Source: Parcubacteria group bacterium GW2011_GWF2_45_11 (GTDB lineage: Bacteria; Patescibacteriota; Patescibacteriia; UBA1558; UBA10009). Taken from it: a stretch of 43,298 nucleotides of DNA. The first letter of the stretch is position 1, and each line of letters begins with the position of its first letter. The position numbers and the translations under genes were made by a program. The DNA is taken from positions 1 through 43,298 of the forward strand of contig LCKE01000015.1 of the NCBI GenBank assembly GCA_001001205.1, read 5' to 3'. This document shows, in pieces, positions 26,299-31,868 of the stretch. Under the pieces are notes generated by a model. The model saw nothing but the letters and a program-made list of their open reading frames with translations, was not told where the DNA came from and searched no databases.

Positions 26299-26333
26299 GA
26301 ACAGATAATGGCTGGCTATATTTTACGACGCCG

Positions 26334-26342
26334 TGATATAAT
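26334..26342 (+). promoter_or_regulatory. extended -10 promoter (TGaTATAAT) for the recombinase gene
   Basis: TGATATAAT at 26334-26342. It lies inside the 5' extension of the long ORF, which argues for the internal start at 26425. Confidence 0.4.
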
Positions 26343-26424
26343 AGAAAGTGAAACTAGGAAACATATCCGTCCGACTCGTTGTCGTGGCAAGCGGGCATGT
26401 TACGTATTGCATCCTACATTCTTT

Positions 26425-27255
26425 ATGCAAAAATACTTTAATTACCTCAAGAGCCGGGGCTTAAGCCAGCGAACCGTCCGCAACTACCGTTTTTATTTAG
26501 CAAGGTTTTTTAACTTTGCCAAAATCGCCAATGGTTCGGACATTACGGTCGCAAAAATCACCGCTTTTACCCGTTATTTAAGCCAAATACAAATCAATCA
26601 TCGGCCTTTAAGCCAGTTGACCAGAAATTACCATCTGATCGCCTTAAGGTCATTGTTAAAATACCTGGAGCAGCAAAAACTTCCCAAACTGCCGGCGGCC
26701 AAAACCGTGGTCTTGGCCAAAACCGAGCGCCGTCCGCAGACCTTGATTAACGCTGACCTCAACAAACTCCTGGCCGCTCCCCTAAAATTCAATAACCCCA
26801 AAATCGTCAAAAGCCGCGACAAGGCGATTCTGGAACTGCTTTTTGCCACCGGCTTAAAAGTCAGTCGCCTGAGCGGGCTGACAAGGTCATGCCTTAACCG
26901 AGTTACGGGACACCTTAAAGCCAGTTCAAAAAAATGCCAGCTGTCGCATCAGGCGCTTTACTGGCTCAAGGAATATCTTAATTTACGCACAGACAACCAT
27001 CCGGCTTTATTCTTAAGCCACGACCGGGCCGCCCGGAGACGGAGCAAAATCAGCAACCTCAGCCCCCGCTCGGTCCAAAGGCTGGTGGAAAAGTACGCCA
27101 AATCCGCCGGGCTTAATAAAAAAATCACCCCCGAGACCTTAAGACGCGCCTATGCCAACCGGCTGCTCGGCCTAGGGCTGAACGTTCAAGAACTGCAAAA
27201 AAAGCTGGGACACCGTTCAATCAACGCCACCAATCTGATGTATAAGAAAAAATAA
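26425..27255 (+). CDS. tyrosine site-specific recombinase, XerC/XerD-like
   Basis: SAM-like N-domain (YLKSRGLSQRTVRNYRFYLARFF). Catalytic C-domain with ...LRRAYANRLL..., LGHRSINATNLMY (R..H-x-x-R..Y pattern). The ORF is open from 26308 but the first 39 aa look non-native. Confidence 0.85.
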   Translation: MQKYFNYLKSRGLSQRTVRNYRFYLARFFNFAKIANGSDITVAKITAFTRYLSQIQINHRPLSQLTRNYHLIALRSLLKYLEQQKLPKLPAAKTVVLAKTERRPQTLINADLNKLLAAPLKFNNPKIVKSRDKAILELLFATGLKVSRLSGLTRSCLNRVTGHLKASSKKCQLSHQALYWLKEYLNLRTDNHPALFLSHDRAARRRSKISNLSPRSVQRLVEKYAKSAGLNKKITPETLRRAYANRLLGLGLNVQELQKKLGHRSINATNLMYKKK

Positions 27256-27428
27256 TCTTTTAAACGTTGACTTTGACGACGATTAATGTTATTTTGTGCG
27301 AGTTAACCACGCCCGCTTGTCTGGCAGTTTCAGCCATAGGCTGACCCCACACACACCAGCCGTCGGGCATGACCCCTGTGGCGGGCAACGGATGCTGAGA
27401 GTAAAAAGAAATAACAATTAAACCACAT

Positions 27429-27875: not shown

Positions 27876-27921
27876 ATCCAGCACAGGTTTTTATTGCCTA
27901 TTTTTGTGCTGTTGATTTTTT
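27876..27921 (+). terminator. possible terminator of the Arg-Arg-His tRNA operon
   Basis: ATCCAGCACA...TGTGCTGTTGAT hairpin followed by T6. It shares the ATCCAGCAC arm with the palindromic repeat family. Confidence 0.4.
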
Positions 27922-27929
27922 ATATTTAC

Positions 27930-27971
27930 AACTTTATAAAGTTACGCCATTTTGCATAACTTTATAAAGTT
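27930..27971. promoter_or_regulatory. two copies of the 14-bp perfect palindrome AACTTTATAAAGTT
   Basis: Copies at 27930-27943 and 27958-27971 (centres 28 bp apart), next to the IS200-like right end. This is an operator-like arrangement with no assignable regulator. Confidence 0.25.
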
Positions 27972-28010
27972 TGGTAATATAGTAAATATACATTACAAAA
28001 AAATAAACTT

Positions 28011-28492
28011 CCCCGAGCTTACGCTCGGGGTATTAGCCGAACGCAAGCTTCGCTTGTCCAGAGTCCTCTTGCCCCTGCTGCTCAATATATCGCCTAATAA
28101 CCTTCAGACCAGACGCTGTCGGTGCCCCAATAGGCCTCTTTGACGAACGGGAATTTTTGCTTCAATGATTTGGCGGTATTGCTCTTTATTATCCTGACCG
28201 CATTACCCACTGACATCGTGGGAGGAATGGAGACCAAAAGGTGAATATGGTCAAAATCGTGATTAACCGTCTTACAGCTAATTAGTGGGTAATGCTTGTG
28301 AATTTCATCAAGCTTGGTCTCCAAATAGGCAAAAATTCCCTCGTTAAATATCCTCTTTCGATATTTAGTCACTAAAACAAGGTGGTAATCGCAATAGTAG
28401 ACACAATGGCTAAGTCTTGTCACTTCCATACCTTACAGTATGAGGCAAGAGGACTCTGGAATCAACTCCATCCCACGGCCTTACGGCCGGGG
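28011..28492 (-). mobile_element. IS200/IS605-family element (tnpA only), decayed
   Basis: Subterminal hairpins with an identical GTAA loop on the element strand: CCCCGAGC-GTAA-GCTCGGGG (28011-28030) and CCCCGGCC-GTAA-GGCCGTGGG (28472-28492). A 17-bp inverted repeat GGCAAGAGGACTCTGGA (28057-28073 / 28444-28460) brackets tnpA. Confidence 0.75.
28094..28429 (-). pseudogene. tnpA: IS200/IS605 Y1 (HUH) transposase TnpA, C-terminally disrupted
   Basis: HUH motif DHIHLLVSIPP is present. The frame stops after ...VWSEGY. The expected C-terminus VIRRYIEQQGQ..., with the catalytic Tyr, is readable only in another frame (about 28040-28100). About 12 codons (FVSTVG...) are missing. Confidence 0.8.
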
Positions 28493-28610
28493 AATTAAGT
28501 TGTGACTATTAAAAACTTTCGGCTCGAACTTTATTCTAAAAGGCAGAAAATTCAGATTTTTAGCCGATTTTGGCTGGGAAATTTTGGCGCAAAGCGCCTC
28601 ATTTGCGTGC

Positions 28611-28684
28611 TGGCAGGGGTGGTAGGAATCGAACCCACGTTACCGGTTTTGGAGACCGGAGTCCTACCACTGAACGACACCCCC
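28611..28684 (-). tRNA. tRNA-Trp(CCA)
   Basis: Minus strand: GGGGGTG...CACCCCTGCCA, anticodon stem CCGGT/ACCGG, loop CTCCAAA, T-loop TTCGATT. Confidence 0.9.
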
Positions 28685-28817
28685 ACAATTTTAGGTTAAA
28701 CTATTAGCAATACGTTTCTTTAAATAAACATAACACATAATCGCTTTTCATAAATTTTTTAAAAACGCAAAAATTACAAACATCAAAAACAAACCACCCC
28801 ATCACCTAATCGCAAAC

Positions 28818-29228
28818 CTAATTCCCTAAATATTGGCTAAGGTTGAGCTGGCTGACTAAATCCGGAAACTTGTCCAAAAGATAAGCGTAGCGGTCGGTGG
28901 CCTGGCCGGTGGACTCGTCAAATAACGGCGTGCCGCCGGTATAAAGGGTGCCGCGGCTGTCACCGTACTGGTTAAGATCGCGTTCGGCCAGCCAGTCGTC
29001 AATTTTAGCTTTACCCTGCACGGTTAAATCAGCAACCAGCTGATCAGCCCAATCCTGCCCGTAAGTCTCCCACCAATCCTTAGACTCGGTTAAACCGGCA
29101 TTGATCAGGCCGGGGACCTTTTCCTCGGCTTGCTTTTGACCTTCTTTAACCCAGCCCCCGATTTCATCATGCCAAAAAAACATCACTACCGCGCCCATAA
29201 TGATAATAAAAATCAAGGCTCTAATCAT
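28818..29228 (-). CDS. hypothetical membrane-anchored protein
   Basis: 136 aa with an N-terminal TM helix (LIFIIIMGAVVMFFW) and a Trp/Asp-rich soluble part. It lies 15 nt downstream of rpmG. Confidence 0.6.
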   Translation of the reverse strand: MIRALIFIIIMGAVVMFFWHDEIGGWVKEGQKQAEEKVPGLINAGLTESKDWWETYGQDWADQLVADLTVQGKAKIDDWLAERDLNQYGDSRGTLYTGGTPLFDESTGQATDRYAYLLDKFPDLVSQLNLSQYLGN

Positions 29229-29243
29229 AAAATTATGATTATT

Positions 29244-29399
29244 TTATTTAGTCTCTTTATGAATTGTATGTGTTTTGCAGAAAGGGCAATGCTTTTTAAG
29301 TTCCAACCGCTCTTTATTGGTTTTTTTGTTCTTGTGTGAATATTGCGTTACTCTTTTGCATTCAGTACATTCCAATTTGATCAAGTTATCCTGTGACAT
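29244..29399 (-). CDS. rpmG: 50S ribosomal protein L33
   Basis: 51-aa ORF translated by hand: [51 protein letters not shown]. It has the L33 CxxC...CxxC pattern and the RLELKK.CP.C..HT.H.E.K motif. It is below the ORF-track cutoff. Confidence 0.9.
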
Positions 29400-29554
29400 G
29401 GTTTTAATAGGTTAATAAATTAATTGGGTCATAGATTGAGGAAAATCTGGGAAAGGAATCAAGCCCCCAAAATCCAATACAAATTAGTCGCCGAGTCCGC
29501 CGAAAAGGCGGATATACTCCGCGAGGTGAACTAAAACTCTTTAACTTTTCATTC

Positions 29555-29648
29555 TGGAGCCGACGGTCGGATTCGAACCGACGACCTACAGTTTATGCCG
29601 CCCTTGGCGGCACCCCGCCGAAGGCGGTGGCAAAACTGTTGCTCTACC
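29555..29648 (-). pseudogene. partial tRNA-Thr(UGU) copy A with a 35-nt insert in the anticodon loop
   Basis: The 3' half at 29555-29595 is 41/41 identical to the intact gene. The 35-nt insert is at 29596-29630. Then 18 nt, GGTAGAGCAACAGTTTTG (29631-29648). The acceptor 5' strand and D-stem 5' strand are absent. Confidence 0.85.
29596..29630 (-). repeat. 35-nt two-hairpin GC-rich mini-insert (copy in Thr-UGU fragment)
   Basis: Plus strand TGCCGCC-CTT-GGCGGCA CCCCGCC-GAA-GGCGGTGG. It is 32/35 identical to 30349-30383, and all 3 differences fall in the hairpin loops. Confidence 0.85.
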
Positions 29649-29659
29649 TGCCGAACGAC

Positions 29660-29716
29660 TGGAGCCGACGGTCGGATTCGAACCGACGACCTACAGTTTA
29701 TGCCGCCCTTGGCGGC
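29660..29716 (-). pseudogene. partial tRNA-Thr(UGU) copy B: 3' half plus one hairpin
   Basis: The 3' half at 29660-29700 is 41/41 identical. It is joined at the same anticodon-loop position to TGCCGCCCTTGGCGGC (29701-29716). It shares the trailer GTCGTTCGG with the intact gene. Confidence 0.85.
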
Positions 29717-29725
29717 CCGAACGAC

Positions 29726-29801
29726 TGGAGCCGACGGTCGGATTCGAACCGACGACCTACAGTTTACAAAACTGTTGCTCTACCAACTGAGCTACGTCGG
29801 C
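29726..29801 (-). tRNA. tRNA-Thr(UGU)
   Basis: GCCGACG TA GCTC AGTTGGTA GAGC A ACAGT TTTGTAA ACTGT AGGTC GTCGG TTCGAAT CCGAC CGTCGGC T CCA. Confidence 0.93.
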
Positions 29802-29822
29802 GACTGGCGACTGGCGGGCAGG

Positions 29823-29859
29823 CAAAACTGTTGCTCGGCAAATCAGCTTAACATATCGC
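29823..29859 (-). pseudogene. degenerate 5' half of tRNA-Thr(UGU)
   Basis: GAGCAACAGTTTTG is exact (29823-29836) and is preceded by a diverged acceptor/D-arm-like stretch. It ends at the same anticodon-loop position and abuts CCTGCCCGCCAGTCGCCAGTC and then the intact gene. Confidence 0.55.
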
Positions 29860-29979
29860 TGATGGCTCGCCATAAAATTTTTGCGGACATCAACAACTTG
29901 TTAACCGCTACCCTAAAGCAAAAACTTTATTCGCTTCGGGGTATAAAATATTTGCTCAGCCTAGTTCGCAAATACTTTT

Positions 29980-30065
29980 TGGTGGGCCGGGTAGGATTCG
30001 AACCTACGAAGGCGAAAGCCAACAGATTTACAGTCTGTCCCGTTTGACCGCTTCGGTACCGACCC
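29980..30065 (-). tRNA. tRNA-Tyr(GUA)
   Basis: 86 nt, class II with a long variable arm. Acceptor GGGTCGG/CCGGCCC, anticodon stem ACAGA/TCTGT, loop CTGTAAA, T-loop TTCGAAT, CCA encoded. Confidence 0.92.
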
Positions 30066-30075
30066 ATATAGACTT

Positions 30076-30321
30076 TTAATTTTCAATTAGCTTTTTAAAT
30101 GCTTCACCGCCTTTATATGATTTTATTCGCAACTCTCTTTTATATGCTTCTTGTTTTGTTAAATACTTTTCCTGATATATAAATTTCCAAGGTACGCCTG
30201 GTTTTGTTGATCTGACTAAACCAGCATTGTGTCTTTTCAATCTTTGCTCCAAATTACCTGTGTGACCAATATAATACTTCTTAATTGAAACACTATATAA
30301 AATGTAAACAATATACTTCAT
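30076..30321 (-). CDS. GIY-YIG nuclease-domain protein (small, catalytic domain only)
   Basis: 81 aa. Motifs YIVYILYS...KYYIGHT (GIY-YIG), RLKRHN, and the conserved Arg/Glu region (KRELRIK). Confidence 0.85.
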   Translation of the reverse strand: MKYIVYILYSVSIKKYYIGHTGNLEQRLKRHNAGLVRSTKPGVPWKFIYQEKYLTKQEAYKRELRIKSYKGGEAFKKLIEN

Positions 30322-30341
30322 TATCCCTTTTCTTAAGCTTT

Positions 30342-30418
30342 AGATTTATGCCGCCTGTGGCGGCACCCCGCCAAAGGCGGTGGCAGTCTGTCCCGTTTGA
30401 CCGCTTCGGTACCGACCC
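30342..30418 (-). pseudogene. duplicate of tRNA-Tyr positions 1-41 interrupted by the 35-nt insert
   Basis: GGGTCGG...ACAGACTG (30418-30384), then the 35-nt insert (30383-30349), then TAAATCT (30348-30342). The tRNA-derived parts are identical to the intact gene 277 bp downstream on the same strand. Confidence 0.85.
30349..30383 (-). repeat. 35-nt two-hairpin GC-rich mini-insert (copy in Tyr fragment)
   Basis: Plus strand TGCCGCC-TGT-GGCGGCA CCCCGCC-AAA-GGCGGTGG. It sits between TTTA and CA, exactly as in the Thr-UGU copy. Confidence 0.85.
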
Positions 30419-30626
30419 TCGTTGTAATCGCGCTCCAGCCTCCGTTGCCGAATGAAATTCGGGTACTCCGGCTTACGCGCGCGCTTGCAATCTTAAGTTT
30501 GCTCAATCTAATAAATATTTTTTAAAATAACTATGCCATAATATAATATAAATCGGCTAAAAAATCAAGAGGATTAAATATAAAACCCAGATTTACTGGG
30601 CGTTATGGCAATACCTGCTAATTAAC

Positions 30627-30724
30627 TGGAGCCGATGTGCGGACTTGAACCGCGGACCTACTCCTTACTCCGCCTACACCCCTTGTTTTGCTTGGGGTTT
30701 CGGCGGACAGGCATGGAGTTGCTC
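30627..30724 (-). pseudogene. partial tRNA-Thr(GGU) copy with a 44-nt insert in the anticodon loop
   Basis: The 3' part at 30627-30668 is 41/42 identical to the intact gene. A 44-nt hairpin insert TCCGCC...GGCGGA-CAGGC lies at 30669-30712. Then ATGGAGTTGCTC (30713-30724). The acceptor 5' strand and D-loop are absent. Confidence 0.8.
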
Positions 30725-30741
30725 CCCGCCTGCCGATCGCC

Positions 30742-30817
30742 TGGAGCCGATGTGCGGACTTGAACCGCAGACCTACTCCTTACCATGGAGTTGCTCTACC
30801 AACTGAGCTACATCGGC
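30742..30817 (-). tRNA. tRNA-Thr(GGU)
   Basis: GCCGATG TA GCTC AGTTGGTA GAGC A ACTCC ATGGTAA GGAGT AGGTC TGCGG TTCAAGT CCGCA CATCGGC T CCA. Confidence 0.93.
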
Positions 30818-30838
30818 GCCCGGAGACTGGCGGGCAGG

Positions 30839-30859
30839 TACTAACTGAGCTACAACGGC
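30839..30859 (-). pseudogene. orphan tRNA 5' fragment (acceptor strand plus D-stem/loop)
   Basis: GCCGTTGTAGCTCAGTTAGTA is 19/21 identical to the Thr-GGU 5' end. It stops after D-loop ...GTA and abuts CCTGCCCGCCAGTCTCCGGGC and then the intact gene. Confidence 0.65.
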
Positions 30860-30971
30860 GGATTTTGTAAAATTAGCTATCAGCTTTCTAAAATCAAAGA
30901 ACCAACTATAACACAACGTATTGGAAGCTACTAGTTTAAAACTGCTTCGTTAAAAGCGTACGAAACAACAA

Positions 30972-31868
30972 TTATAATTCTTCTATCCTTTTCTTAAAAT
31001 CATCCAGCTTTTGATTTTCCGGATTAGCCTCGGCTAATTGCCTCAAAGCCTTGCGTGCGGCAACTTTATCTTGAAGTATTATACTGATCTCTATCAAAAA
31101 GTCAAGAATCTTGGGATTTTTCGGCTCTTGCGTCACCGCCTGGGTAATAACTTCAAACGCCTTATTCGGCTCATCCAGGTTTAAATAAACCTGAGCCAGG
31201 TTTAAATAAACCGAAATGTCCTTGCTGTTTAACTGTAATGACTTTAAATACTTATCCTCGGCCGTTTTTAAATCGCCGCGATCAACGGAAATTTCGCCTA
31301 AACTTTGGTAAACAAAAGGATCGGCGTCGTCTAAAATCATTAAAAATTCAAAAGTCTCTTTGGCGTGTTCATAATCTTTCTGCAACAAATAAAGCCGGCC
31401 TAAACCTTTATAAGCCTCAACGTTCTTTTCGTCTAAAGTTAAAGCTTCTATATATTTCTTTTCCGCCTCCTGGTACTTTTCCTCGTCAGTCAGCTGTTCC
31501 GCCTCTTTGATAATTTCATCATTTTTTTGCTCCTGCATCACCTTATCCTTAAAACTTGACTGCAAAACTTTATGACGGTAATCTTCCTCCAAATCCACCA
31601 ACTTCTGATATCCCTGCCTCAGCTTTAAGCCTAAGTGATTAAAGGCCGGTTTTAAAAAAACCCACAGCTTGGCGCCGCCGTCCCTCAGCCGGCGCTCCAG
31701 CCTTTGCCTGATCAGCTGCTGTTTGATGGTCATTTGCTGAATCACAGGCGAGGCTTTAGGATTAACGGATTTAACCGCCGGCAACTTACGCGCCGCGATG
31801 TAGATAATCACGCCCAAACACAAGACGATTATTAAAATGATAAAAGGGGTAAACATATAATTATTCAA
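30972..31868 (-). CDS. TPR-repeat protein with N-terminal membrane anchor
   Basis: 298 aa. TM helix FTPFIILIIVLCLGVIIYIAA and several TPR-like 34-aa units (AYKGLGRLYLLQKDYEHAKETFE, VYLNLAQVYLNLDEPNKAFE). Confidence 0.8.
   Translation of the reverse strand: MNNYMFTPFIILIIVLCLGVIIYIAARKLPAVKSVNPKASPVIQQMTIKQQLIRQRLERRLRDGGAKLWVFLKPAFNHLGLKLRQGYQKLVDLEEDYRHKVLQSSFKDKVMQEQKNDEIIKEAEQLTDEEKYQEAEKKYIEALTLDEKNVEAYKGLGRLYLLQKDYEHAKETFEFLMILDDADPFVYQSLGEISVDRGDLKTAEDKYLKSLQLNSKDISVYLNLAQVYLNLDEPNKAFEVITQAVTQEPKNPKILDFLIEISIILQDKVAARKALRQLAEANPENQKLDDFKKRIEEL

Follow-up and report, generated by a model that had tools for sequence, protein, structure and literature searches.

Mobile endonuclease ORFs in fungal mitochondria, as at Allomyces atp6, bring along a duplicated or foreign segment of the host gene when they insert, and the displaced fragment remains as a pseudogene. 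REP elements with their tyrosine transposases and the IS200/IS605 elements are hairpin based and act on single-stranded DNA. tRNA genes, notably in the anticodon loop, are classic targets of integrases, which leave a duplicated 3' fragment behind. In T-even phages, the GIY-YIG gene segB lies among tRNA genes and promotes the inheritance or amplification of a segment that includes a full tRNA-Tyr, resulting in duplicated tRNA segments (PMC13096335). Further published accounts describe host gene fragment exchange through intron mobility (PMC7315562), GC clusters, double-hairpin elements, and repetitive hairpin-forming elements in AT-rich mitochondrial genomes (PMC4478555, PMC2800124), several introns at noncanonical positions in archaeal tRNA genes together with intron spread in the Thermoproteales (PMC4090602, PMC4033280), and the archaeal tyrosine recombinases (PMC8371274).

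Here, we analyzed a tRNA-Thr(GGU) locus in a 43,298-nt stretch of Patescibacteria DNA (the window, meaning the whole stretch analyzed). All of its features lie on the minus strand, and their order and coordinates agree with the seven segments listed in a preliminary description of this DNA. The locus opens with positions 1 to 21 of an old (outer) tRNA-Thr(GGU), recognized by sequence comparison (GCCGTTGTAGCTCAGTTAGTA; 30839 to 30859), followed by a GC-rich 21-nt leader, CCTGCCCGCCAGTCTCCGGGC (30818 to 30838), an intact (inner) tRNA-Thr(GGU) (30742 to 30817), and a 17-nt trailer, GGCGATCGGCAGGCGGG (30725 to 30741). The old gene then resumes with positions 22 to 34 (GAGCAACTCCATG; 30712 to 30724; 13/13 match), is interrupted between G34 and G35 by a 43-nt GC-rich hairpin (CCTGTCCGCC...GGCGGA; 30669 to 30711), and ends with positions 35 to 76 (30627 to 30668). 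A terminator-like hairpin with a T run follows (30585 to 30601). The inner gene, detected by ARAGORN and scored at 69 bits by Rfam, forms a perfect cloverleaf with the acceptor stem GCCGATG/CATCGGC and an encoded CCA, and is presumably the functional gene. The two outer 5' pieces adjoin exactly, with no overlap and no gap, so the second does resume where the first stopped (21/22). The outer 3' part is identical to the inner gene at 41 of 42 positions, as reported before (BLAST E = 4e-17). The anticodon-loop hairpin is likewise present, at 43 nt instead of the 44 nt counted previously, because a single G could belong to either side of its boundary.

The inner and outer copies represent different alleles. 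The outer 5' fragment matches the intact gene at 19/21 positions, versus 20/21 for the clean gene of the relative L030 and equally for those of L032, L023, and L037. It keeps the acceptor strand GCCGTTG of these relatives and has an A in place of G18, a base that is near-universal in tRNAs. In the outer 3' part, C49 creates a C:A mismatch in the T stem, and T68 stands opposite T5 of the 5' fragment. Virtual splicing of the outer copy thus yields a molecule with three structural defects (T5:T68, C49:A65, and G18 to A). Judged by its sequence, the outer copy in the window is most likely a decaying pseudogene, and its 3' half has probably been kept similar to the inner gene by gene conversion.

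Syntenic loci in relatives were located via the neighboring upstream tetratricopeptide-repeat (TPR) protein, with the triosephosphate isomerase (TIM) protein also used for look-up. A clean single gene with the acceptor stem GCCGTTG/CAACGGC occupies the site in L030 to L033, L023, L037 to L040, and L082; on this sequence comparison, the ancestral state is one clean gene of that allele. Locus L020, whose neighboring TPR protein is 56% identical, has the same outer gene, with inserts at 21/22 and 34/35, a homologue of the 43-nt hairpin at the same tRNA position, and a nested intact gene. Its cassette sits at a different point (29/30, with ACTT duplicated), the leader and trailer form a perfect 10-bp repeat of other sequence, and the acceptor and T arms of the inner copy differ along their whole length from those of the outer copy. 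The L020 nest is independent of the window nest. The two share both insert positions, and yet the gene is clean in relatives with a more similar TPR protein, a distribution that requires either repeated loss or horizontal transfer.

The preliminary description named assembly error and chance similarity of short fragments as what would refute it. Some assemblies indeed break or place N-gaps inside the locus (L007, L010), and the 13-nt and 17-nt fragment matches taken alone reach only E = 0.035. Nevertheless, at least 15 independent assemblies (ENA, JGI, and NCBI), made with different assemblers from different samples, agree on the locus letter for letter; moreover, the fragments follow one another in tRNA order and together divide it exactly, the 5' fragment carries the allele of the relatives, and a homologous nest exists in L020. 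Artefact and chance can therefore be regarded as already refuted.

The proposal that the intact tRNA is cargo in the loop of a D-loop hairpin insert within a broken copy is supported, and is strengthened by the comparison with relatives. The ends of the D-loop insert (CCTGCCCGCC...GGCAGGCGGG) fit a recurrent hairpin family, CCTGYCCGCC-loop-GGCGGR (the P family), whose loops elsewhere contain further nested hairpins. The anticodon-loop insert belongs to the same family; it has a nested CCCC/GGGG hairpin within its loop and folds as DNA at -11.7 kcal/mol (z = -4.2). The first 10 nt of the leader correspond to the 5' arm of the D-loop element and the last 6 to 10 nt of the trailer to its 3' arm, and the remainder of the leader is conserved 5' of cassette tRNAs. 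Homologous leaders occur at 29802 to 29822 in the window and in L054 (TCGCCCGCTAGTCGCCGGGC) and L082 (CCTGCCCGCCGCCAGGC); the word CCTGCCCGCCAGTC also precedes tRNA-Thr(UGU) at 29809 to 29822, as observed earlier. The trailer 17-mer recurs 3' of tRNA-Thr(UGU) in L077 (17/17) and L021 (16/17), and related forms follow tRNA-Thr(UGU) in L020 and at the Thr-UGU locus of the window. In L077, the identical trailer accompanies a different tRNA, and the GIY-YIG protein there is just 58% identical to that of the window. Folded as one RNA, the 247-nt region forms a tRNA within a tRNA (-109.1 kcal/mol; z = -5.5), and folded as DNA it reaches -50.8 kcal/mol (z = -4.7). The pairing of leader and trailer comprises the 8 Watson-Crick pairs, one G-U, and one mismatch described before. 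With the two joined by a GAAA loop, the fold has z = -1.0 and 31/200 shuffles fold as well, so chance alone could give the pairing at this locus in sequence of such GC content. Inverted repeats of 10 to 19 nt, unrelated in sequence, flank other cassette tRNAs.

A further hairpin unit, H, is a 35-nt double hairpin with the structure CCACCGCC-N3-GGCGGGGTGCCGCC-N3-GGCGGCA. It follows G and precedes (T)A(A/G); a fixed tetranucleotide was not seen. The hairpin families end at exact boundaries and lie in either orientation with respect to tRNA genes (P-family members are reversed in L022, L025, L064, and L082). They strongly prefer DNA encoding tRNA loops, where they sit behind G34 or G35 or within the D-loop. 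Their stems are conserved between genera and their loops vary. Hairpins are also present in non-tRNA DNA, where H is inserted without any duplication and no empty-site copies were found adjoining the insertions, and next to an intact RNase P RNA gene, a duplicated 3' fragment contains one in antisense orientation. The exact boundaries, the occurrence in either orientation and in non-tRNA DNA, and the antisense copy at RNase P RNA argue for insertion at the DNA level and not for introns.

Two sister loci on the minus strand of the window extend this picture. The tRNA-Thr(UGU) locus (29555 to 29840) has the same architecture, comprising an old fragment, a leader, the intact gene (29801 to 29726), a trailer (GTCGTTCGGCAGG), old positions 20 to 35, H (29630 to 29596), and a 3' half. 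The tRNA-Tyr locus (29980 to 30418), laid out as in L020 and 15 metagenome loci, consists of an outer 5' half (30418 to 30384), H (30383 to 30349), TAAATCT (30348 to 30342), an 81-aa ORF (30321 to 30076), and the intact tRNA-Tyr (30065 to 29980). The ORF product matches the Pfam GIY-YIG domain (E = 6.7e-15), and its nearest solved relatives are UPF0213 proteins (E = 2e-3). It consists of this catalytic domain only, in contrast to characterized homing endonucleases, which have a DNA-binding domain.

A metagenome scan recovered H in 31 tRNA-context loci (Tyr, Thr-UGU, and three Ser isoacceptors). An intact tRNA of the same isotype lies within 340 nt in 28 of them, which is 28/28 of those assessable, as the contigs of the other three end too early to judge; because the scan was seeded with the hairpin itself, all of its association statistics are conditional on the presence of H. 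GIY-YIG homologues of about 80 aa lie within 400 nt of H in 23/31 loci, in fixed layouts, and the GIY-YIG start lies at a constant 18 to 32 nt from H whatever the lineage or target tRNA. In L082, a GIY-YIG gene separates orphan 5' fragments of Thr-GGU from the intact gene. No polymorphism of filled and empty sites was seen within the species. The H pattern had no match in viral contigs, and the trailer pattern had three there, none near a tRNA; these look like chance, and a viral origin was rejected.

We interpret the Thr-GGU locus as the fossil of a DNA-level, self-complementing, and probably nuclease-driven invasion of a resident tRNA-Thr(GGU) gene, and assign this reading a probability of about 0.6. 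Comparison shows that, at the start, a clean single gene followed closely on the TPR gene and had a promoter region and a terminator of its own. Small GC-rich palindromes ending in CCTGYCCGCC...GGCGGR would then have inserted into its D-loop (21/22) and anticodon-loop (34/35) DNA. Subsequently, a promoter-less cassette would have come to lie in the loop of the D-loop palindrome, bringing a complete replacement tRNA-Thr(GGU) of the allele GCCGATG/CATCGGC between a short leader and a short trailer, both conserved. Given what is generally known of tRNA maturation, transcription would run from the old promoter through the nest as far as the old terminator, and RNase P and 3' processing would free the inner tRNA as the working gene, the outer pieces being left as the decaying pseudogene. 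No promoter-like match was found in the GC-rich leader, and a terminator-like site was found only after the outer 3' part, where it appears to close the transcription unit, so that the whole nest would constitute one such unit. The invasion would not be lethal, because the invader brings along a copy of the essential gene that it disrupts.

By analogy with the equivalent modules at tRNA-Tyr in the window and at tRNA-Thr(GGU) in L082, the likely driver would be a putative mini GIY-YIG nuclease; as in homing, a break in a naive tRNA gene would be repaired by copying the invaded allele. Inside the Thr-GGU locus there is no nuclease, transposase, or recombinase gene, nor any ORF in 30627 to 30859. 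With the nuclease gene absent, the module would be non-autonomous or have lost its nuclease. The junction duplications vary (0, 4, 12, 14, and 35 nt) and do not point to one insertion chemistry.

Insertion itself is indicated by the exact 21/22 partition and the A[AB]B layout, which tandem duplication cannot produce. This layout, in place of ABAB, bears directly on an explanation that dispenses with a cassette, in which local duplication and gene conversion among neighboring tRNA-Thr genes gave redundant copies, and independent palindromes then settled in these alone because insertions into working copies were lethal. Such safe-haven logic would account for hairpins being seen solely in redundant fragments, and H standing alone in non-tRNA DNA without duplication implies that the hairpins are independently mobile. 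The near identity of the 3' halves (41/42 here and 41/41 at Thr-UGU) is what local duplication or conversion predicts, the unit number at Thr-UGU varies between assemblies, and the layouts at Tyr and at RNase P can formally be described as partial duplications in tandem. However, the inner 5' part is of another allele than the outer one, which is ancestral, and the L020 copies diverge along both arms. Homologous leaders and an identical 17-nt trailer also accompany cassette tRNAs of different isoacceptors in distant lineages, and the spacing between H and the GIY-YIG start is constant across lineages and targets. We therefore consider an origin without a cassette unlikely, if still deserving of attention.

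The fold of the region as a tRNA in a tRNA, with the outer acceptor stem formed, invites a different explanation at the RNA level. The outer copy would itself work as a tRNA gene and have two introns in hairpin form, the second tRNA lying inside one of them, and one precursor would yield two tRNA-Thr molecules, with RNase P/Z freeing the inner one and a cut-and-ligate reaction removing both inserts from the outer one. The single promoter region and single terminator, the placement of the inserts exactly in loops, and the conserved stems and variable loops of the hairpins between genera are in line with this scheme, as are archaeal tRNAs with multiple introns at noncanonical positions (PMC4090602, PMC4033280). 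The L020 outer copy even forms a perfect cloverleaf once all three inserts are virtually removed, and removal at the RNA level may occur there. Against this stand the three defects of the window outer copy, including the lost G18, and the truncated outer copies at Tyr (window and L020) and Thr-UGU (L020, L037, L054, and L068), which cannot yield a tRNA because they are truncated. The same hairpin families also lie antisense to RNA genes and in non-RNA DNA, and no hairpin-bearing copy was seen without an intact partner (28/28 assessable H loci). No bacterial enzyme is known to perform such splicing. Nesting of two working tRNAs in one RNA is thus improbable, and resolution of the nested precursor in RNA with splicing of the outer copy equally so; the evidence points to DNA events and not to a nested RNA intron system.

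Known intron types were also rejected. The bulge-helix-bulge of archaeal/eukaryal-type tRNA introns (two 3-nt bulges and a 4-bp helix) is absent from both the sequence and the minimum free energy fold as we read them. Instead, the junctions of each insert are directly opposed at the base of one continuous helix, arranged in H as TG/CC...GG CA/ (slashes marking the junctions). Furthermore, the interrupted gene is not the sole copy in any assessable locus, given the intact gene of the same isotype there, and it is probably not functional, as many interrupted copies are truncated and that of the window has three defects. Group I introns have a core of about 200 nt or more, and the inserts here span only 35 to 43 nt; there was no Rfam intron match over 27900 to 31000 even at E <= 1. 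A group I remnant around the GIY-YIG ORF is excluded by the lack of room for a ribozyme core and of any Rfam match. Rfam returned tRNA matches only, with no intron or ribozyme family; YrlA stayed below threshold (30 bits versus 69) and reflects the tRNA fragments.

The locus could alternatively represent leftover attachment sites of a tyrosine-recombinase integrative element that regenerated the tRNA gene and was itself deleted since. The use of tRNA genes, and notably of the anticodon loop, by integrases that leave a duplicated 3' fragment fits this idea, and a XerC-like recombinase gene lies 3.4 kb away (26308 to 27255). Yet this recombinase resembles an ordinary Xer protein and is unlinked to the loci in relatives, and the same architecture recurs without a nearby integrase. 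Just 73 nt separate the intact gene from the 3' fragment, where a kilobase-scale element with an integrase would be expected; 5' fragments are present besides 3' fragments; and the breaks fall at 21/22 and 34/35, with conserved-family hairpins at the junctions. Leftover attachment sites are accordingly a very improbable source. MITEs share the inverted ends, but their duplication length would be fixed, and here it is 0 nt, versus 4 nt in L020 and 14 nt at Thr-UGU; no target-site duplication of fixed length was found, and H inserts without any. IS200/IS605 and REP elements have a Y1 HUH transposase with cognate subterminal hairpins and insert 3' of a fixed tetra- or pentanucleotide. An IS200-like transposase is an unlikely mobilizer here, as the Y1 ORF 2.3 kb away (28094 to 28429) is truncated and its hairpins are unrelated to those of the tRNA loci.

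Returning to the DNA-level invasion, its resemblance to described systems is partial. With SegB, it shares a GIY-YIG nuclease gene embedded among tRNA genes; such an ORF in or beside the insert is absent at the Thr-GGU locus and present at Tyr in the window, at Thr-GGU in L082, and at 23/31 H loci. A variant target copy with variable junctions, which in homing are co-conversion tracts, was found as well: the inner gene carries another allele than the ancestral gene, the GIY module has its left junction at different points between positions 41 and 47, and the junction duplications range from 0 to 35 nt. Unlike SegB, which belongs to phages, the modules here reside on a Patescibacteria chromosome, the protein of about 80 aa is a catalytic domain only, closest to UPF0213, and the old gene is left as nested fragments with conserved hairpins. 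The fungal mitochondrial ORFs offer a parallel in self-complementing insertion, by which the disrupted essential gene is restored from the incoming segment, in the old part remaining alongside, and in GC-rich hairpins near the junctions; however, the target here is a bacterial tRNA gene, a complete gene is supplied and not just a terminus, and a nest results. Mitochondrial GC clusters are likewise short, rich in GC, palindromic or double-hairpin in form, and sharply delimited within an AT-rich genome; they are apparently mobile, nest in one another, and are tolerated only at harmless sites. They differ from the bacterial units in sequence family, and the latter prefer tRNA-loop DNA, with one family tightly linked to a mini GIY-YIG gene. 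Archaeal tRNA introns also include short hairpin inserts in the D-loop and anticodon loop, with related inserts across different tRNA genes, whereas the bacterial inserts lack a bulge-helix-bulge, lie also antisense and outside RNA genes, and occupy defective or truncated copies that are always accompanied by an intact one. The likeness to IS200/IS605 and REP elements lies in the use of hairpins and in the IS200-like transposase ORF 2.3 kb away; here, no conserved tetranucleotide or guide geometry was seen, and the linked protein is a GIY-YIG and not an HUH enzyme.

This arrangement was not found described in literature on tRNA introns in candidate phyla, GIY-YIG genes with tRNA genes, nested tRNA genes, and hairpin elements, a search covering subscription journals only to a small extent. 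The small DNA elements that would invade Patescibacteria tRNA genes and bring a replacement copy thus apparently form an undescribed family. More broadly, and with slightly less than even confidence in the reading as a whole, the conserved hairpin units (H and CCTGYCCGCC...GGCGGR) and the 80-aa GIY-YIG protein may constitute an undescribed class of mobile element in Patescibacteria that targets DNA for tRNA loops and other hairpin tips and delivers a replacement copy, repeated rounds of which would build nests. If so, the essential tRNA genes of these ultra-small bacteria would be a battleground for tiny selfish elements that avoid killing their host by carrying a spare copy of their target. 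This would explain why Patescibacteria assemblies show odd tRNA fragments and broken contigs and why tRNA genes are missed or miscalled in them. The pairing of a compact 80-aa nuclease with a 35-nt DNA partner, which may recognize hairpin tips, could be of practical interest, and the system would provide a bacterial counterpart to the debated link between archaeal interrupted tRNA genes and tRNA-targeting mobile elements. Such loci would also offer a natural record of successive tRNA allele replacements and a route for horizontal tRNA gene turnover. In the window assembly, the Thr-UGU locus has one extra 66-nt unit compared with other assemblies, and L054 and L068 show three successive generations with different acceptor stems.

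The tRNA-Thr(GGU) locus lies at positions 30627-30859 on the minus strand, where the preliminary description had proposed an intact gene inside a second, broken copy. The proposed segment order was borne out, with all listed pieces present. On the minus strand, positions 1 to 21 of the outer tRNA (30859-30839, two differences from the intact gene) are followed by a 21-nt GC-rich leader (30838-30818), the inner intact gene (30817-30742; called by ARAGORN, 69 bits in Rfam), and a 17-nt trailer (30741-30725). The outer copy resumes with positions 22 to 34 (30724-30712, 13/13 match), is interrupted by a 43-nt hairpin (30711-30669), and ends with positions 35 to 76 (30668-30627, 41/42 identical, E = 4e-17), after which a terminator-like hairpin follows (30601-30585). 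At 21/22, the outer pieces partition the tRNA exactly, with neither gap nor overlap. Folding the region as one RNA or as DNA, both proposed beforehand as checks, gives a predicted tRNA within a tRNA (-109.1 kcal/mol, z = -5.5, and -50.8 kcal/mol, z = -4.7, respectively). The 10-nt leader/trailer pairing comprises the base pairs originally described but by itself does not exceed chance. The window has nine tRNA genes, only three of which (Thr-GGU, Thr-UGU, and Tyr) are accompanied by partial copies in their vicinity.

Genes for the window's triosephosphate isomerase and GIY-YIG proteins occur on many contigs from ENA, JGI, and NCBI that were assembled independently, at least 15 of which have an identical Thr-GGU locus. 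An assembly artifact, which fits poorly and has a negligible probability, was rejected on this ground. Assemblers sometimes break the locus (L010; L-numbers denote other contigs or assemblies compared with the window) or leave N-gaps (L007), as expected from its internal repeats. Unlike Thr-GGU, neighboring loci differ between assemblies. At Thr-UGU, the window carries an extra 66-nt unit (29651-29716), consisting of half of a 35-nt double hairpin termed H, a 3' half, and GTCGTTCG. Over eight further assemblies of this species lack the unit, and L009 contains additional ones around an N-gap; the differences reflect either real copy-number variation or repeat collapse during assembly. Within-species variants at the Tyr locus include a 34-nt nested hairpin in the loop of H hairpin 1 (L002, 12040-12140), with a different junction before the GIY-YIG ORF as well (a variant common to L062), and a deletion of H and the start of this ORF (L004). 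In L070 (1850-2000), a tRNA-Ser(GGA) module is joined at H to the Tyr module of the window species (GIY-YIG 100% identical); the join arose either by recombination at H or as a chimera created at the 35-nt repeat during assembly.

Related Patescibacteria share the gene order TPR protein, tRNA-Thr(GGU), tRNA-Tyr, tRNA-Thr(UGU), and L33, and the TPR-protein homologues found bear Komeilibacteria names. Single, clean, tightly packed genes are present in L030 to L033 and L037/L038 (63 to 67% TPR identity), as well as in the more distant L023, L039, and L040; in L030, the three tRNA genes span only ~280 nt from the TPR gene to L33. Comparison with these relatives shows the clean single gene to be the ancestral state. 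Their Thr-GGU acceptor stem is GCCGTTG/CAACGGC. In the window, the outer 5' fragment likewise reads GCCGTTG, whereas the inner gene has GCCGATG/CATCGGC, which identifies the outer copy as the old resident and the inner gene as the newcomer. The segment that splits the old gene, exactly at 21/22, contains a different allele in full. The outer copy is in decay: after virtual removal of its inserts, it has T5:T68 and C49:A65 mismatches and A instead of G18, and it looks like a pseudogene. Homogenization with the inner gene is evident in its 3' half, from T68 and the 41/42 identity.

Hairpins of conserved families interrupt these genes. One, the P family (CCTGYCCGCC-loop-GGCGGR), accounts for the insert in the anticodon loop and for the ends of the one in the D-loop. 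Its loops hold further nested hairpins, and in L022, L025, L064, and L082 it lies inverted within orphan tRNA fragments, in their D-arm region. At the syntenic site of L022 (5905-6055), the sole Thr-GGU-like sequence has no ARAGORN call, its 5' acceptor GCCCACC is unpaired with the 3' CATCGGC, and immediately upstream of it is a P-family hairpin; a working Thr-GGU gene, if any, must be elsewhere. The insert at Tyr and Thr-UGU is H (CCACCGCC-N3-GGCGGGGTGCCGCC-N3-GGCGGCA), which can fold as two hairpins or one long hairpin. Between the window and the relative L020 (56% TPR identity), H is ~90% conserved, differing in the loops and by one inserted G, while the noncoding DNA around it has diverged.

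A metagenome scan for H found 44 places. Of these, 31 are tRNA contexts (after G34 in Tyr and after G35 in Thr-UGU, Ser-CGA, Ser-GGA, and Ser-UGA), nine are in other DNA with flanks lacking duplication, and three are H-like stretches in GC-rich coding sequence, likely chance matches. The remaining H is antisense beside an RNase P RNA gene (L058, 13464-13551 in original coordinates), directly after the intact gene and within a duplicated copy of its last 12 nt, a layout as at tRNA genes. Bulge-helix-bulge geometry is absent at the inserts, and Rfam gave no intron or ribozyme match. The exact boundaries, both orientations, and non-RNA sites favor insertion in DNA over an RNA splicing system, and the hairpin families behave as DNA insertions. 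Nested introns acting at the RNA level would agree with the perfect outer cloverleaf of L020 but are very improbable given the defects of the window's outer copy, the truncation of outer copies at other loci, the antisense and non-RNA hairpins, and the lack of a splice motif. In the displaced 3' halves of outer tRNA-Tyr in L049, L050, and L053, part of the T arm has given way to further GC hairpins (CGTCCCGCC...GGCGGGAC), which makes the T-loop region another site that is hit.

Nesting of this type is found repeatedly and, at the sister loci, is associated with GIY-YIG genes. Loci with H in a tRNA context usually have such a mini nuclease gene as well. An intact same-isotype gene lies at most 340 nt from the H-bearing fragment in all 28 assessable tRNA-context loci (the other three contigs end too early). 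In one layout, which 15 loci share (the Tyr locus of the window among them), the 5' half is followed by H, 7 to 13 nt of the 3' half, ~20 nt, the GIY-YIG ORF, and the intact tRNA. In a second, the intact tRNA precedes a 12- to 17-nt spacer, 6 to 8 nt of the 5' half, H, and the 3' half. Both surround one intact gene in L064, L062, L050, and L041, so that H borders the resulting nest on either side. On its right, the window's Thr-GGU locus follows the second layout: the intact gene is succeeded by 17 nt, then by 13 nt of 5' sequence from the old copy, the hairpin, and the 3' half. In L082, orphan 5' fragments of Thr-GGU are separated from an intact copy of that gene by a GIY-YIG gene (42% identity to that of the window), and a different double hairpin comes after position 17. 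The GIY-YIG protein encoded in the window consists of the catalytic domain alone (Pfam PF01541, E = 6.7e-15) and shows weak similarity to group I intron endonucleases; its nearest solved relatives are UPF0213 proteins.

L020 has a GCCGTTG-type outer gene with hairpins at 21/22 and 34/35, as in the window. Its inner intact gene (GCCGAGA) is placed at 29/30, unlike in the window, with ACTT duplicated, between a perfect 10-bp inverted repeat (GCCAATAGCC/GGCTATTGGC) unlike the window's in sequence. Other inverted repeats flank the cassette tRNAs of L054 and L078, and three fragment generations with differing acceptor stems are present in L054 and L068. Homologues of the window's leader occur in L054 and L082. 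The 17-nt trailer recurs behind tRNA-Thr(UGU) in L077 (identical) and L021 (16/17), adjoining a decayed 3' half of the outer copy at its position 36. Plain duplication, followed by hairpin insertion in redundant copies as safe havens, explains part of these data, as H moves independently and such copies are the only places where it can persist; it is nevertheless unlikely, leaving unexplained the exact A[AB]B partition, the inner/outer allele difference, and the shared leader and trailer.

We favor a DNA-level invasion with a pseudogene outer copy (probability of roughly 0.6). A break in a tRNA gene would be followed by acquisition of the segment through homing-like recombinational copying from an invaded allele, with hairpin tips as preferred break or insertion points. 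Junction duplications vary (0 to 35 nt), more in keeping with recombination than with a transposase of fixed chemistry. Remnants of integrase attachment sites are a poor fit and highly improbable. As the driver of this mechanism, the mini GIY-YIG nuclease is the candidate, although this specific role is put forward tentatively, at below even odds. The inner tRNA would depend on the old promoter for its expression and on RNase P and 3' processing for its release, and repeated rounds may have built the nests.

Some mitochondrial endonuclease ORFs bring a replacement gene fragment along on insertion, and the nest would work alike. Phages likewise have free-standing GIY-YIG homing endonuclease genes situated among their tRNA genes, and the nest would resemble these too in its working; for one of them, SegB, amplification of a tRNA-Tyr segment was recently shown (PMC13096335). 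A further likeness is to the GC clusters and double-hairpin elements found in AT-rich mitochondrial genomes (PMC4478555, PMC2800124). By the tests run, the Thr-GGU locus belongs to none of these three families: it is devoid of a nuclease gene, no DNA-binding domain is present in the protein of the sister locus, and the sequences of the hairpin families are new. Neither tRNA-in-hairpin-in-tRNA nests nor an H/GIY-YIG module in bacteria was described in the literature searched, whose incomplete coverage means that this is no proof of absence. Self-complementing, nuclease-associated selfish insertions are a known kind, of which the locus would be a variant.

Elsewhere in the window, a half-hairpin resembling H hairpin 2 (27369-27384) lies within a GC-rich stretch (27340-27400) between a XerC-like recombinase gene (26308-27255) and tRNA-Arg. 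Another GC-rich, apparently structured stretch (30430-30505, minus strand), with no Rfam match, is located just upstream of the tRNA-Tyr unit; its outline is conserved in L021 (6290-6355), a relative with a clean tRNA-Tyr. A truncated IS200-like Y1 transposase ORF of 111 aa (28094-28429, minus strand; region 28040-28480), with its C-terminal YIEQQ motif downstream and out of frame, lies between a perfect 17-nt inverted repeat (28057-28073/28444-28460) and has GC hairpins with GTAA loops at both ends.
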